64,000 bases of DNA from Patescibacteria group bacterium. GTDB lineage: Bacteria; Patescibacteriota; Patescibacteriia; UBA1558; GWA2-36-10. Location: assembly GCA_041665505.1 (NCBI GenBank), contig JBAYIR010000004.1, positions 6,797 through 70,796 of the forward strand. The letters are read 5' to 3'. Shown piece after piece: positions 24,356 through 39,233 of this stretch (within the stretch, counting starts at the first letter, position 1; every line of letters begins with the position of its first letter). The position numbers were made by a program, and so were the translations under genes. The notes below the pieces were generated by a model. That model saw only the letters and a list, made by a program, of their open reading frames with translations, was not told where the DNA came from and did not search any database.

Positions 24356-24700
24356 ATGCCAGTAGTCAAAAATGACAATAAAAACAAGGCTAATAATGAG
24401 TGGCTAAGACAAGGAATGATGATGTTTGCCGAAAGTACCGGCTGGATCGCTTTCCCAGTCATAGGAGCTCTGTTTTTAGGTCAATGGCTAGATGAAAGAC
24501 AAGGCACAGGGCAGTTATATTTTTTAAGTATTACAGCTCTAGCTTTTATACTTTCTTCTGTGGGTATAGGCATGACAGGCGTAAAGTATATGAATAGAAT
24601 TGAAAAAGATGAAGCTGGGAAGAAAAATAATAAATCAAATAGCTTAGACAAAACCACACAGGAGAAAAAACAAGAAAATGAGCCAAGAAACGATAAATAG
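24356..24700 (+). CDS. AtpZ/AtpI-like small membrane protein preceding the ATP synthase operon
   Basis: Position immediately upstream of atpB; two TM helices and a Lys-rich tail, as in ATP-synthase protein I families. Confidence 0.4.
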   Translation: MPVVKNDNKNKANNEWLRQGMMMFAESTGWIAFPVIGALFLGQWLDERQGTGQLYFLSITALAFILSSVGIGMTGVKYMNRIEKDEAGKKNNKSNSLDKTTQEKKQENEPRNDK

Positions 24701-25580
24701 CAATCAAAACAATATAGAAGATACTTCGCGCATAGTTGAAGAAATTTTGGGTGAAGACTTAAATCAGGAAGCTGGCGCTCATACAGCTGAAGGAGCTGAG
24801 CATGAGGAGCACGAGCATACTTTATTTGCCGAAACAGTTTTTCAGGTTGGTGATTTTCCAATCACCAATTCACTGCTGACATCTTGGGTAGCAGTTTTTT
24901 TAATTATTATTTTGTCATTGGTCATTCGAGCTAAAAATAGTCGCATCCCATCAGTTTTCCAAAGTTTTATGGAAATAATTATTGATGGCGCACTGGGTAT
25001 GATGGATTTAGTGACCAATGATAGAGCTAAAAGTAAAAAAGTATTTCCAGTTATATTTTCAATTTTTCTTTTTGTGCTTATCAACAACTGGTTGGGGTTG
25101 TTACCGGGTTTAGGCTCCATTACTTATAATGGAGTAGCCTTACTAAGAGGGGGTACAGCTGATTTAAATACCACATTAGCTTTAGGGTTGTTTTCCGTAG
25201 TATCGGCCAATATTTTTGGTATGCTGGTAGTCGGTGGTTGGAATTATTTTAATAAATTTGTAAACATAAAAGCATTAATAGAAATACCTGGTAAAATTAG
25301 GCACGAACCAACCATTGTTTTGGTTAATCCTATAACTTTTTTTGTAGGATTAATTGAGATAGTGTCAGAAGTGGCCAAAGTAGCTTCACTATCATTTAGG
25401 TTGTTTGGTAATATTTTTGCTGGGGAAGTATTGATTGCTTCTATTTCAGCTTTAGTGGCTTATGGTGTGCCGCTACCATTTATGTTTTTAGAAGTAATTG
25501 TCGGAATTATTCAGGCCTTGATATTTTCCATTCTGACTTTGGTTTATTATACTATTGCTTCAGTTGAGCATGAACATTAA
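24678..25580 (+). CDS. atpB: F-type ATP synthase Fo subunit a
   Basis: Signature RLFGNIFAGEVL and polytopic membrane profile. Confidence 0.85.
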   Translation: MSQETINSNQNNIEDTSRIVEEILGEDLNQEAGAHTAEGAEHEEHEHTLFAETVFQVGDFPITNSLLTSWVAVFLIIILSLVIRAKNSRIPSVFQSFMEIIIDGALGMMDLVTNDRAKSKKVFPVIFSIFLFVLINNWLGLLPGLGSITYNGVALLRGGTADLNTTLALGLFSVVSANIFGMLVVGGWNYFNKFVNIKALIEIPGKIRHEPTIVLVNPITFFVGLIEIVSEVAKVASLSFRLFGNIFAGEVLIASISALVAYGVPLPFMFLEVIVGIIQALIFSILTLVYYTIASVEHEH

Positions 25581-25814
25581 TCTCCTGTCATCCCGAGCGC
25601 AGTTGAGGGGTCTAGCTAGATTCCTGCCTGCCGGCAGGCAGGTCTCCACTTCGGTCGAAATGACAAGTGTCATTATTAATTAACAAAGATAATCATAGGC
25701 GACGTAAAATAATAAAAAAATTAACCCCGTTGAATGCTGCAAAGCAGCAGCGACAGAGTCGCTATTCAACAGGGGTAAAGATCGACCTATTATTATCAGA
25801 AAGGAAACAACAAT
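25581..25814 (+). ncRNA. highly structured GC-rich intergenic RNA element / atpE leader (multiple perfect palindromes and a three-stem junction)
   Basis: cctgcctgccggcaggcagg (20-nt palindrome), aatgacaagtgtcatt, and ccccgttgaat[gctgc aaa gcagc][agcgac aga gtcgct]attcaacagggg. Confidence 0.35.
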
Positions 25815-26027
25815 ATGGATCTAACATTAATTGCCAAAGCCGCTGCTATTGCTATCGGTGGTATTTCTCCAGCCTTAGCTATCGGCAAAATTGGTGCCAA
25901 AGCTATGGAATCAATTGGTAGAAATCCAGAATCAGCTGGCAAAATCTTAGTGCCTATGCTTTTGGTATCAGCTTTTGCTGAAGCTATTGCTATTTATTCA
26001 TTGATTATTGCTTTTTCAATCAAATAA
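25815..26027 (+). CDS. atpE: F-type ATP synthase Fo subunit c
   Basis: 70-aa proteolipid hairpin GRNPES...[10 protein letters not shown] with the carboxylate E. Confidence 0.85.
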
Positions 26028-26111
26028 TCGATTGTTTTGAGTGCTCTCTATATATGAGGGCACGACTAAGCAATTAATCTCTCGACATAGTTCGAGATAG
26101 AAGAAAATAAT

Positions 26112-37582: not shown

Positions 37583-37585
37583 TAT

Positions 37586-39154
37586 ATGAATAAAGAAATA
37601 ATTAAACAATATTTACCAGACAATGTTGATGTGAATTTTTTTGCCAACGTCGCTGTCTTTGAAATAGCTACAGCCAATATTAAAGAAGTAGTAAATTTTT
37701 TGCGTAATGACAAAAATCTTTCATTGAAGTTGGTTACAGCTACCGATGAGCGCAAAGATAGTCATTGTTTTAAAATTTGGTATGTTTTTGGCCTACCTAA
37801 AGAAAATATATTTATTGTGCCTTTTATTAAATTAGAAGATACTTTGGAATTTCCTTCGGTCGCTTTGGCCTGCCAAGAAGCTTTGAATTATGAGCGTAAG
37901 ATCCAAACTTTTTTTGGTTTAGTACCAGTGGGACATACTGATCCTAGGTCTATTATTTTGCATGAAAATTGGCCAGCTAATATTTTCCCTTTGAGAAAAG
38001 ATTTTGACTGGCAATCCAGACCAGCTGTAGTCGAAGGGACTTATCAATTTAATCGGGTCAAGGGCGAGGGGATATATGAGATACCAGTCGGTCCTATTCA
38101 CGCTGGTATTATTGAGCCAGGGCATTTTCGTTTTAGCGTGGCTGGAGAAACTATAGTGTCATTAGAACCGCGTTTGGGTTTCACACACAAAGGTAGTGAA
38201 AAGTTGTTTGAACATTTTTCATTAGCCGATAGTGTGCGACTGGCTGAAAAAATTTCTGGTGACAGCTCTCTTAGTCACTCTTTGGCTTTTTGTCAGACCA
38301 TAGAGAGTTTAGCTGATTTGAAATTGCCAAAGCGGGCTGCTTATTTGCGGGTCATTTTTGCTGAGCTAGAGCGTCTAGCCAATCACTTTGGCGATATTGG
38401 GGCTATTATGCTGGACACGGGATTTAATTTTGGTGGTGCGCAAGGATCAAGATTGCGTGAGATGATTATGCAAATTAACGAGCGTTTGACTGGTAGTAGA
38501 TTTTTGCGTTCAGTCAATACTATTGGTGGAGTGCAAAAAGATTTAACAGAGGCTGAAATAAGCCAGCTAGCCAAAAGCTTAGAGATAATAGCCAAAGATT
38601 TTTCTGAAGTCATAGAAATTGCTGAAAATAGTTCATCATTAGTCAATCGTCTTCAAGACACTGGTAAGCTTACTCAGGCTTTTGCTAAAAGTCATGGCGT
38701 AGTTGGTGTGGCGGCTAGAGCTACTGGTATCGGATGTGATACGCGGGCTGATTTTCCTTATGCCGCTTATCAAGAATTATTTTTAGATAGAATTGAAACA
38801 GAAAACACTGGTGATGTTTGCGCACGATTTTATGTCCGCATCAAAGAAGTCAGAGCGTCCATAGCTATAATTGATGGTGCTTTGAAAGCTATACCTAAGG
38901 GACTCATCAAAACTAGTGATACTATTGTTCTCAAAAAAAATGCTTGTGCTATAGCTCTGGTAGAGGGTTGGCGAGGAGAGATTTTGTATTTTATCACCAC
39001 CGACGCGCAAGGGCAGATTAGTAGAGTTGTACCTCGTGATCCTTCTTTTCTGAATTGGAATGTCTTGGGTAAAGTTGGTGTAAATAATATAGTACCAGAT
39101 TTTCCTTTGATTAATAAAAGTTTTAATTTGTCCTATACGGGTAATGATTTGTAG
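37586..39154 (+). CDS. NuoC-NuoD fusion / HycE-like large subunit lacking both NiFe-binding CxxC motifs
   Basis: NuoC-like ALNYERKIQTFFGLVPVGHTDPRSIIL; NuoD-like VGPIHAGIIEPGHFRF...GFTHKGSEKLFE; N-terminal RxCGxC position reads RLAEKISGD; C-terminal DPCxxCxxH position reads DPSFLNWNV. Confidence 0.7.
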   Translation: MNKEIIKQYLPDNVDVNFFANVAVFEIATANIKEVVNFLRNDKNLSLKLVTATDERKDSHCFKIWYVFGLPKENIFIVPFIKLEDTLEFPSVALACQEALNYERKIQTFFGLVPVGHTDPRSIILHENWPANIFPLRKDFDWQSRPAVVEGTYQFNRVKGEGIYEIPVGPIHAGIIEPGHFRFSVAGETIVSLEPRLGFTHKGSEKLFEHFSLADSVRLAEKISGDSSLSHSLAFCQTIESLADLKLPKRAAYLRVIFAELERLANHFGDIGAIMLDTGFNFGGAQGSRLREMIMQINERLTGSRFLRSVNTIGGVQKDLTEAEISQLAKSLEIIAKDFSEVIEIAENSSSLVNRLQDTGKLTQAFAKSHGVVGVAARATGIGCDTRADFPYAAYQELFLDRIETENTGDVCARFYVRIKEVRASIAIIDGALKAIPKGLIKTSDTIVLKKNACAIALVEGWRGEILYFITTDAQGQISRVVPRDPSFLNWNVLGKVGVNNIVPDFPLINKSFNLSYTGNDL

Positions 39155-39205
39155 ATGTTAGTATAAGAGGTCATGTTAGACATAGTAAAAATTTTATATT
39201 TTTAT

Positions 39206-39233
39206 AAAAACCCCCTATTTTAGGGGGTTTTTA
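39206..39233 (+). terminator. strong rho-independent terminator ending the atp/complex-I-like transcription unit
   Basis: aaaaaccccctattttagggggttttt; 7-bp G/C stem flanked by A/T runs (bidirectional in appearance). Confidence 0.7.

Follow-up and report, generated by a model that had tools for sequence, protein, structure and literature searches.

An Ehr-type gene module without redox-cofactor ligands beside the F1Fo ATP synthase operon of a Patescibacteria genome

The stretch of DNA analysed here (the window) comprises 64,000 nucleotides of a metagenome-assembled genome (MAG) from the Patescibacteria, or candidate phyla radiation (CPR), and belongs to a groundwater bacterium with a tiny genome. 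Between positions 24356 and 39233, a same-strand run of genes consists of a full F1Fo ATP synthase (atp) operon, a Pro_CA_2 gene, six genes of the Ech/energy-converting hydrogenase-related complex (Ehr) in the order S-A-B-C-D-L, and one strong terminator (Table 1). The gene identities were obtained from the open reading frame (ORF) listing together with Pfam and NCBIfam scans, and the NuoC-NuoD-like protein EhrL matched a protein from a Patescibacteria group MAG with 100% identity. The F1Fo subunits a, c, b, delta, alpha, gamma, beta, and epsilon were encoded in canonical order, which was the same in relatives. An earlier note, made from the sequence alone, had described the six-gene module as Ehr-like and related to group 4 hydrogenases and to complex I, and the Pfam, NCBIfam, and PDB alignments led to the same identification. 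The gene content and coordinates given in that note also stand, except for atpE. Its atp gene set was indeed complete, but atpE had been placed at 25667-25921, where an 84-aa ORF starting with GTG overlaps the start of the true gene; a Pfam scan of this ORF was empty, and it is probably no gene. The gene behind atpC, which had been called hypothetical, was correctly positioned but turned out to be the Pro_CA_2 (PF20393) gene CA2a, which is the terminal gene of the atp operon in Ehr-less relatives and lies outside Ehr.

Table 1. Features of the atp-Ehr locus, in positions of the window
Feature	Position	Strand	Basis or remark
Promoter-like site before the atp operon	24299-24327	+	TTGACT-N17-TATAAT, 11/12 matches, near-perfect
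atpI/atpZ-like small membrane protein	24356-24700	+	weak PF09527, 21.9 bits (below cutoff); position conserved in relatives
atpB, Fo subunit a	24678-25580	+	PF00119, E 2.9e-39
atpE, Fo subunit c, 70 aa	25815-26027	+	translation; orthologues in relatives annotated PF00137
atpF, subunit b	26112-26606	+	PF00430
atpH, subunit delta	26606-27007	+	PF00213
atpA, subunit alpha	27012-28544	+	PF00006, PF00306, PF02874
atpG, subunit gamma	28554-29492	+	PF00231
atpD, subunit beta	29571-30938	+	PF00006, PF02874
atpC, subunit epsilon	30961-31395	+	PF02823, PF00401
CA2a, Pro_CA_2 beta-carbonic-anhydrase-like, 149 aa	31421-31870	+	PF20393, 29.9 bits
Intergenic: terminator-hairpin remnant (no stable stem), then promoter-like TTGACT-N17-TACTAT at 31906-31934	31871-31934	+	
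EhrS, NuoB/HyfI-like small subunit	31966-32508	+	PF01058
EhrA, HyfB/NuoL-like antiporter-like subunit	32510-34555	+	NCBIfam 'hydrogenase 4 subunit B', 675 bits against a cutoff of 667
EhrB, NuoH/HycD/HyfC-like	34558-35490	+	PF00146
EhrC, HyfE-like (NuoK-type)	35487-36134	+	NCBIfam PRK11492, E 5.8e-17
EhrD, HyfF/NuoN-like antiporter-like subunit	36140-37582	+	Pfam and NCBIfam
EhrL, NuoC-NuoD (HyfG/HycE-like) fusion	37586-39154	+	Pfam and HycE alignment
Intrinsic terminator closing the Ehr unit	39205-39233	+	13-bp stem, -18.4 kcal/mol
Promoter-like site for the next gene (CA2b)	39246-39274	+	TTGACT-N17-TACAAT with extended TG
CA2b, second, distant Pro_CA_2 paralogue, separate transcription unit	39380-39925	+	PF20393, 34.1 bits

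The peripheral arm of the module has lost its cofactor ligands. EhrS of the window contained no cysteine at all, and a phmmer alignment to MbhJ (6cfw) and HycG (7z0s) placed D57, A60, D124, and D154 at the four ligand positions of the [4Fe-4S] cluster. When EhrL was aligned to HycE, S224/S227 and S516/G519 occupied the positions of the four NiFe cysteines, with the N-terminal CGIC of HycE corresponding to SGDS in EhrL and the C-terminal CysC to SytG. These per-residue alignments bear out what had been read from the letters, namely that the NuoB-like subunit is free of cysteine and that the large subunit lacks both NiFe CxxC motifs. They also indicate that the loss is real, with no cysteines present in shifted positions in the Cys-free EhrS. 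Furthermore, no CxxCxxCxxxC ferredoxin motif was found in window ORFs of at least 45 aa, in agreement with the reported lack of a ferredoxin-type subunit in the window. NuoE, NuoF, NuoG, and NuoI were absent from the operon and the window in Pfam and motif scans. Among 20 large flanking ORFs scanned against Pfam none was redox- or hydrogenase-related, and no hydrogenase maturation (hyp) genes were found within the 64-kb window.

The module was then compared, by tblastn, phmmer, and MAFFT, with 80 genome loci and 50 metagenome loci, together with contexts from exact-protein look-ups. The large-subunit patterns SSSG, STSG, and SESG were found in 112 of 121 family members, and true CCCC large subunits occurred only in L030, L057, L058, and L073 of the collected loci. 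These loci fell cleanly into two main groups, classical Ehr and the clade of the window (hereafter the Cys-less clade). Classical Ehr came from Nitrospira, Rokubacteria, Acidobacteria, Firmicutes, and Thaumarchaeota, with EhrL 39-49% identical to that of the window, whereas the identity within the Cys-less clade was at least 54%. The named members of this clade were Parcubacteria, Saccharibacteria, Microgenomates, Peregrinibacteria, and Gracilibacteria, and a few bins were labelled Firestonebacteria, Endomicrobiales, Thermoleophilia, or Fibrobacteria. The gene order was S-A-B-C-D-L across the clade and mostly A-B-C-D-L-S in classical Ehr. At the ligand positions of EhrS, all 66 aligned classical proteins carried CCCC, whereas the Cys-less clade carried DCDD (22 members), TCDD (5), DADD (4, including the window), DCDN, DTDD, and similar patterns. 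Judged from this alignment, the loss of the small-subunit [4Fe-4S] site is the character that defines the clade, and because EhrS lacks the four cysteines, the module is filed as a variant of Ehr. A third, divergent Cys-less group (L012, L054, and L068) showed the patterns SEGD or TEGD.

The difference between the two main groups extended to the electron-transfer partners. An ORF with two [4Fe-4S] motifs beside or fused to EhrS was found at none of 41 Cys-less loci, compared with 18 of 66 classical loci; the sole motif match in the former was an unrelated 77-aa ORF with one motif, about 1.6 kb downstream in L013. In 14 of the 18 ferredoxin-bearing classical or true hydrogenase loci (L030, L038, L041, L048, L057-L059, L062, L064, L070, L071, L073, L080, and L127), the small-subunit ORF was 240-350 aa long and had a ferredoxin-like extension with two CxxCxxCxxxC motifs. 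No EhrS of the Cys-less clade had such an extension. A conserved seventh subunit or electron-input partner was also sought and not found, as clustering of the flanking ORFs gave only atp genes and the ferredoxin-motif scan beside EhrS was empty. Small hypothetical genes upstream of Ehr in L083, L084, L086, and L147 had no Pfam match. In the Peregrinibacteria and Gracilibacteria MAGs L084 (2138-4365) and L086 (1347-4266), a Fic-domain gene and two to three small Pfam-less genes precede Ehr, with no atp genes nearby.

Despite the loss of the ligands, the surroundings of the former metal centres were retained. The former active-site residues S224, G225, D226, S228, H231, K511, and D521 of EhrL were invariant, and the chamber residues H172, H180, K202, D226, H231, E260, E262, H267, R463, K511, and D521 were conserved in both the classical and the Cys-less clades. 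As the Cys-less clade dropped the last FeS cluster yet kept the large-subunit chamber, the core function of Ehr may not be redox chemistry.

The membrane arm kept the residues expected of proton channels. EhrA, aligned to MbhH and HycC, had the complete set E147, K229, H236, K260, H350, H354, and K358, which matched the Glu of transmembrane helix (TM) 5 and the Lys of TM7, TM8, and TM12 of MbhH. EhrD had E133, K220, H227, H334, and K338, with Asn or Pro at the TM8 position. EhrB carried a conserved acidic loop (E189, R192, D196, E203, E209, and E214), and EhrC carried the membrane residues E158 and E171. The canonical Lys, Glu, and His residues of EhrA, EhrD, EhrB, and EhrC (E158) were all invariant in the clade, and the antiporter-like EhrA and EhrD were homologous to MrpA and MrpD of the Mrp Na+/H+ antiporter. 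Position 171 of EhrC was Glu in 37 of 38 Cys-less members and Gly in 51 of 60 classical members; gain of the carboxylate and loss of the FeS cluster thus go together.

As all cofactor ligands have been lost, the module might be regarded as the relic of a hydrogenase operon, decaying and functionless, and a 2026 Geobacter paper indeed treats Ehr as non-functional. However, all six Ehr ORFs were intact, EhrL was 63-78% identical across CPR classes and other phyla, the pump and chamber residues were invariant, the codon-position difference profile resembled that of atpD, and the GC content at third codon positions (GC3) of the block was 0.25-0.29, the same as that of host genes. Strong conservation, an atpD-like substitution profile, and host-like GC3 together argue for a functional complex under strong constraint, and the substitution pattern indicates purifying selection. 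Moreover, classical Ehr proteins were detected in a Geobacter proteomics study. The conservation in the sequences effectively refutes a relic, which we find scarcely credible. A recent foreign origin of the block was likewise unsupported by composition, because its GC3 matched that of the host genes.

To place the neighbourhood of the module in context, 50 non-redundant Cys-less loci were assembled, 40 of which were informative (at least 1.5 kb of flank on one side). The atp genes lay less than 3 kb away in 14 of these 40, and in 8 of the 22 loci with at least 3 kb on both sides. Among other Ehr or hydrogenase loci, only 1 of 69 was linked, namely L054 of the divergent Cys-less group (Fisher p = 1.6e-6). 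If the loci were placed at random in a 1-Mb genome, five independent links among 22 loci would arise with a probability of about 7e-5, and eight with one of about 7e-9. Five distinct arrangements were observed: Ehr behind atpD-atpC in the same orientation, at distances of 1-2723 bp (the window, L006, L013, L095, L104, L122, L125, and L126); Ehr inside the atp operon as atpG-Ehr-atpD with gaps of 5 and 24 bp (Saccharibacteria L007, 1-13383, with L109 and L123); Ehr convergent with atpC, the 3' ends facing each other (L101, L115, and L120); Ehr located upstream of atpB (L128); and Ehr on the opposite strand, separating atpD from atpC (Daviesbacteria L009). In an unbiased clustering of ORFs within 2.5 kb, the only real families found beside Ehr in at least four loci were atpC (12), atpD (11), and atpG (4), the other multi-locus clusters being spurious ORFs that overlap atp genes. 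Thus, the linkage between atp and ehr genes is conserved and statistically strong, but not universal. Its recurrence in many related bacteria suggests that Ehr and the ATP synthase work together. In the Magasanikbacteria MAG L013, with atpD-atpC upstream of Ehr, an Na+/H+ exchanger gene (PF00999, 11714-13018) follows EhrL by 150 bp; as a recurrent neighbour it was rejected, being seen in L013 only among the fetched loci.

Such proximity could also mean that Ehr assists or regulates F1Fo, for example as a gated proton conductance or as a local element of the proton circuit that tunes the ATPase, and is no exchanger. The embedding between atpG and atpD in Saccharibacteria, the position at the atpC end of the operon in most linked loci, and the intact proton-channel residues are in line with this. 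Nevertheless, a six-subunit complex of seven kilobases would be costly for genomes of about 1 Mb, many genomes encode Ehr away from the atp genes, and close relatives with a near-identical F1Fo lack Ehr entirely, so we judge such a regulatory role decidedly unlikely.

The DNA around the module bears traces of its history. A consensus scan of 23500-40500 detected only one strong terminator-like hairpin, the one that closes the Ehr unit. In the 95-bp gap before EhrS, the hairpin scan found no terminator, and the stretch after CA2a (31871-31934) folded at -6.7 kcal/mol (z -1.2), compared with -16.2 and -10.7 kcal/mol at the homologous position in the Ehr-less relatives L142 and L144. The earlier note's remark that no terminator intervenes between the atp operon and the module therefore holds. 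Alignment of the intergenic DNA revealed that in the Ehr-less relatives CA2a is followed by a terminator hairpin, a TTGACT-N17-TAnAAT promoter, and a conserved 5' leader. The same terminator-promoter unit was intact downstream of EhrL in the window (39205-39274), its terminator being homologous to the one 3' of CA2a in those relatives, and a partial second copy with the hairpin lost and the promoter kept lay behind CA2a. The lack of an intervening terminator is meaningful because the ancestral atp terminator is missing exactly where Ehr begins. The atp and ehr genes are predicted to be co-expressed, and the promoter-like site ahead of EhrS means that the module may own a promoter besides read-through from atp.

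In the Ehr-less loci L088-L090, the order was RmuC - atpI...atpC - CA2a - AddA-like helicase - PheST - GyrB, and in the closest relatives (L142-L145), also Ehr-less, it was atpC - CA2a - CA2b - helicase, indicating that the Ehr block sits exactly between two native genes. L146, with an EhrL 78% identical to that of the window, had Ehr at the same site. The more distant L013, L095, and L122 also showed atp-Ehr-helicase synteny, whereas closer relatives lacked Ehr. Two histories would fit this distribution: gain by the lineage of the window, or loss by the closer Ehr-less relatives.

These observations bear on another explanation of the linkage, in which adjacency has no mechanistic meaning and a self-contained Ehr block lands or stays at the 3' end of the atp operon, a site that tolerates insertions and is well expressed. 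The block is an indel between two native genes that closer relatives do without, it has its own promoter-like site and terminator, 26 of the 40 informative loci (about two thirds) had no adjoining atp genes, and the non-CPR clade members (Firestonebacteria, Endomicrobiales, and Thermoleophilia) showed no linkage. Set against this are the number of arrangements, which include insertion within the operon and convergent pairing, the small probabilities given above for chance linkage, the failure of any other family to recur beside Ehr, and the atp linkage of a second, divergent Cys-less clade (L054). On balance, we consider a meaningless adjacency rather unlikely.

Two Pro_CA_2 genes flank the module. 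CA2a belongs to a family of 78 clusters with 56-98% identity, in whose alignment C22 and R26 were invariant and D24, H88, and C91 were present in at least 90% of members; the consensus equals a Cys...His..Cys zinc triad plus an Asp/Arg dyad. CA2a of the window has N88 and S91 in place of His and Cys, that is, two of the three zinc ligands of the family are lost. Its AlphaFold2 model (pLDDT 85) best matched beta-carbonic anhydrases, although weakly (Foldseek E 4e-4, TM ~0.5), and a sequence search against the PDB matched no chain. In several Parcubacteria lineages, with or without Ehr, the atp operon consistently ended with CA2a (10001-10450 in L088-L090, 2102-2551 in L142, and 5285-5734 in L144). 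A literature search for PF20393/Pro_CA_2 returned only unrelated lanthipeptide papers and none on the atp-associated protein. CA2b keeps an intact Cys/Asp...His/Cys motif and is native to the locus. Its GC3 was 0.54, compared with about 0.26 in every other gene checked. A GC-rich island of about 700 bp (~39350-40050) with about 50% GC lies over CA2b in a genome of 35% GC, and the CA2b homologues in L142, L144, and L146 were likewise GC-rich relative to their flanks. A hidden structured RNA in this island was rejected: Rfam gave only terminator-like noise, and substitutions relative to L142 numbered 30/24/84 by codon position, an excess at the third position that indicates coding sequence. The NCBI 158-aa call for CA2b (start M24) would drop the conserved Cys23.

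With Pro_CA_2 genes on both sides of the module and a modelled CA2a fold resembling beta-carbonic anhydrases, Ehr might be a vectorial CO2-hydration or bicarbonate device like cyanobacterial NDH-1MS/CupA or DabAB, acting with these neighbouring proteins. In L054 (3273-12763), moreover, a Cys-less Ehr of the divergent group (SEGD; EhrL 42% identical) has atpC on one side and, on the other, a 313-aa ORF with a Pro_CA_2 domain as its C-terminal half (47.9 bits), which places a second Ehr clade within an atp-Pro_CA_2 unit. However, both Pro_CA_2 genes belong natively to the atp locus, where Ehr-less relatives have them side by side. Outside the lineage of the window (the window itself and a weak, sub-threshold match in L146), L054 was the only one of the fetched loci with a Pro_CA_2 neighbour. 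The lost zinc ligands of the window CA2a and the lack of a CupA or DabA homologue in the unit also argue against a CO2 device, and we regard it as very unlikely. CA2a and CA2b were also rejected as accessory subunits or a CO2-hydration partner of Ehr, since CA2a ends the atp operon and the pair is adjacent without Ehr in L142-L145.

The remaining genes of the window were almost all housekeeping genes, including aminoacyl-tRNA synthetases, TGT, ClpB, GyrB, PheST, and Der. The helicase ORF at 39901-43053 (AddA-like UvrD/PD-(D/E)XK), as listed from a GTG at 39901, begins inside the last part of CA2b. Its orthologues have 975-991 aa and are 60-75 aa shorter, which makes a true start near 40090 probable. 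Two adjacent genes at 8003-8875 and 8936-9739 encode pilin-like proteins of 290 and 267 aa with the N-terminal methylation motif PF07963, which are unusually rich in cysteine (20 and 19 residues, respectively).

Ehr was named in 2005 (Coppi 2005; Marreiros et al. 2013, both as cited in PMC6349859 and PMC12342949). Monophyletic Ehr large subunits without metal-binding cysteines, which 'likely cannot interact with H2', were described in CPR bacteria by Jaffe et al. 2020 (PMC7304191), and hence the lack of NiFe ligands in CPR Ehr is already known. The function of Ehr was given as unknown by Matheus Carnevali 2019, where an FDH (formate dehydrogenase)-Ehr complex was speculated, by Meheust 2020, by Nitrospira papers of 2023 and 2025, by a 2023 review on ammonia-oxidising archaea, and in every other paper that we found since the naming, the latest from 2025-2026. 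The earlier note had called such relatives bioinformatically noted and functionally uncharacterised, which agrees with the literature found. The PDB contained no Ehr structure, the best matches being formate hydrogenlyase (FHL) and membrane-bound hydrogenase (MBH). The term 'ATP synthase' does not occur in the text of PMC7304191, and no mention of an atp-Ehr linkage was found in the literature searched. Within that literature, the clade-defining FeS loss with Asp replacements, the altered gene order, and the recurrent, sometimes intra-operonic, atp linkage appear to be undescribed, and the intact pump residues of the membrane arm were not described there either.

The ATP synthase itself gave an indication of the coupling ion. 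The c-subunit of the window reads AFAEAIAIY, and the Gln, Ser, and Thr of Na+-binding c-rings are absent, with Ile and Glu-Ala-Ile instead. The Na+ motif (Gln...Glu-Ser/Thr) was found in none of the c-subunits examined, from Ehr-linked and Ehr-less genomes alike, and an Na+-type c-ring is therefore not supported. The motif, by which alone we judged, suggests a c-ring of the H+ type.

Antiporter-like subunits with a chain of Lys and Glu residues conduct protons. In complex I, MBH, and Mrp, what drives these subunits happens at the junction close to the NuoH-like subunit, and Mrp illustrates that this event need not be redox. MBX/MBS is a precedent for a member of the superfamily that functions after loss of the NiFe site. 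Without an electron input, the Ehr module could not act as a redox pump. The earlier note had considered a redox-independent ion-translocating module, perhaps coupled to F1Fo, a reasonable interpretation that the comparative data strengthen. We tentatively favour, at somewhat less than an even chance, the reading that it is a redox-independent secondary transducer of ions, coupled to protons and working with the H+-type F1Fo ATPase. In such a machine, the membrane arm would be competent, with EhrA and EhrD providing two antiporter-like proton channels and EhrB and EhrC forming the E-channel. In the peripheral arm of EhrS and EhrL, a conserved polar and acidic chamber would have taken the place of the NiFe site and the last FeS cluster, with three conserved Asp of EhrS and D226, H231, K511, and D521 of EhrL standing where the metal centres were. 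In a fermentative cell without a respiratory chain, F1Fo would hydrolyse ATP and export H+, which would re-enter via the antiporter-like subunits of Ehr. This flow would power the outward transport of a cation, Na+ being the likeliest, or some other vectorial step via the EhrB-EhrL-EhrS chamber, so that F1Fo and Ehr would form an ATP-driven ion-homeostasis unit. The direction of ion flow, the identity of the ion, and the role of the peripheral arm are inferences.

Several points weigh against this transducer. The main weakness is the strict conservation of the NuoB/C/D-type arm, which a plain antiporter does not need and an exchanger leaves unexplained; no part of the module is more conserved than this arm, which suggests that it binds a ligand or carries out some chemistry. 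The site residues of EhrL are the same in the FeS-bearing classical Ehr, so that the shared function could differ from ion exchange. MrpE, MrpF, and MrpG, thought to form the Na+ path, are absent from the module. The ion specificity of the c-ring is a call from knowledge of motifs only. The promoter-like site ahead of EhrS means that expression may be independent of atp, and most informative Cys-less loci lie apart from the atp genes. Finally, the literature searched reports no experiment on any Ehr.

The conserved arm could also be read as the seat of a primary pump, in which chemistry without a Cys-bound cofactor, for example a non-redox exergonic reaction or one that depends on a cofactor or partner supplied in trans, would generate proton-motive force for ATP synthesis. 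Co-encoding the generator and the consumer of a gradient would be logical; the chamber residues D226, H231, K511, and D521 are invariant, the three Asp at the FeS positions could form a new metal or substrate site, and the E-channel linking the chamber to the pumps is intact. But no substrate-processing domain or partner gene recurs near the module, the superfamily offers no precedent for non-redox primary pumping, and EhrS and EhrL of the window retain no redox ligand. We think a primary pump unlikely.

Returning to the proton-coupled transducer, we can extend it to a broader proposal. The Cys-less Ehr would be the first machine of the complex I superfamily that has the whole coupling apparatus (peripheral-arm chamber, NuoH-like E-channel, and antiporter-like pumps) but no redox cofactor, and it would form a functional unit with an H+-type F1Fo in CPR bacteria, expressed in some Saccharibacteria as one operon transcript. 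We put this proposal forward as possible rather than probable. CPR bacteria make up a large share of bacterial diversity, and how they energise their membranes, and why they retain F1Fo without a respiratory chain, is puzzling; a conserved and putatively ion-translocating module with genetic ties to F1Fo offers a concrete candidate for a part in their membrane energetics. Ehr is also widespread, occurring in Nitrospira, ammonia-oxidising archaea, Geobacter, Acidobacteria, and CPR bacteria. How the junction of the peripheral and membrane arms drives distant pumps in complex I is debated, and a cofactor-free natural version would be a useful minimal system. If the proposal is true, cells without respiration would gain an ATP-powered converter of ion gradients, and a natural 'redox-free complex I' would become available for studying conformational coupling apart from electron transfer.

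When compared with known systems, the module resembles Ehr in its six subunits homologous to HyfB, C, E, F, G, and I, in a large subunit without NiFe cysteines, and in the shared residues D226, H231, K511, and D521. Unlike classical Ehr, the clade of the window has D/T-C/A/T-D-D/N at the ligand positions of EhrS, the order S-A-B-C-D-L, Glu171 in EhrC, and atp linkage, and has no ferredoxin domain. The best structural and NCBIfam matches were to Hyf/FHL-1 of E. coli (7z0s), with 235 bits for HycE, 284 bits for HycC, and a HyfB model score above the cutoff, and both have a peripheral arm seated on a NuoH-like subunit together with antiporter-like subunits. By homology, the closest functional models of the module are the Hyf subunits B, C, E, F, G, and I. 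In contrast to Hyf/FHL-1, it lacks the NiFe site, the FeS clusters, the ferredoxin subunits HycB, HycF, HyfA, and HyfH, and the formate dehydrogenase partner, and the window has no hyp genes. Pyrococcus MBH and MBS/MBX (6cfw and 6u8y) belong to the same superfamily, MbhJ being the best structural match for EhrS; MBS, however, has three FeS clusters, redox chemistry, and an Mrp-type Na+ module, none of which is present in the Ehr module.

Like complex I (Nuo/Nqo), the module has homologues of NuoB, C, D, H, K, L, and N/M, with the E-channel and antiporter residues conserved. Unlike complex I, it has no N-module (NuoE, F, and G), no NuoI, no N2 cluster (its ligands being replaced), and no separate NuoA or NuoJ; CPR bacteria are not known to synthesise quinones. 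It also differs from the vectorial carbonic anhydrases (NDH-1MS CupA/B and DabAB), as the unit contains no CupA/CupB or DabA (PF10070) domain. Our working analogy is Mrp (6z16, 7qru, and 7d3u), which has no redox chemistry and has MrpA/MrpD-type subunits with a Lys/Glu chain. The module differs from it in lacking MrpB, C, E, F, and G and in having a NuoH-like subunit and a NuoB/C/D-like arm, which are absent in Mrp. By this analogy, the Ehr module may work like Mrp without being a member of the Mrp family.

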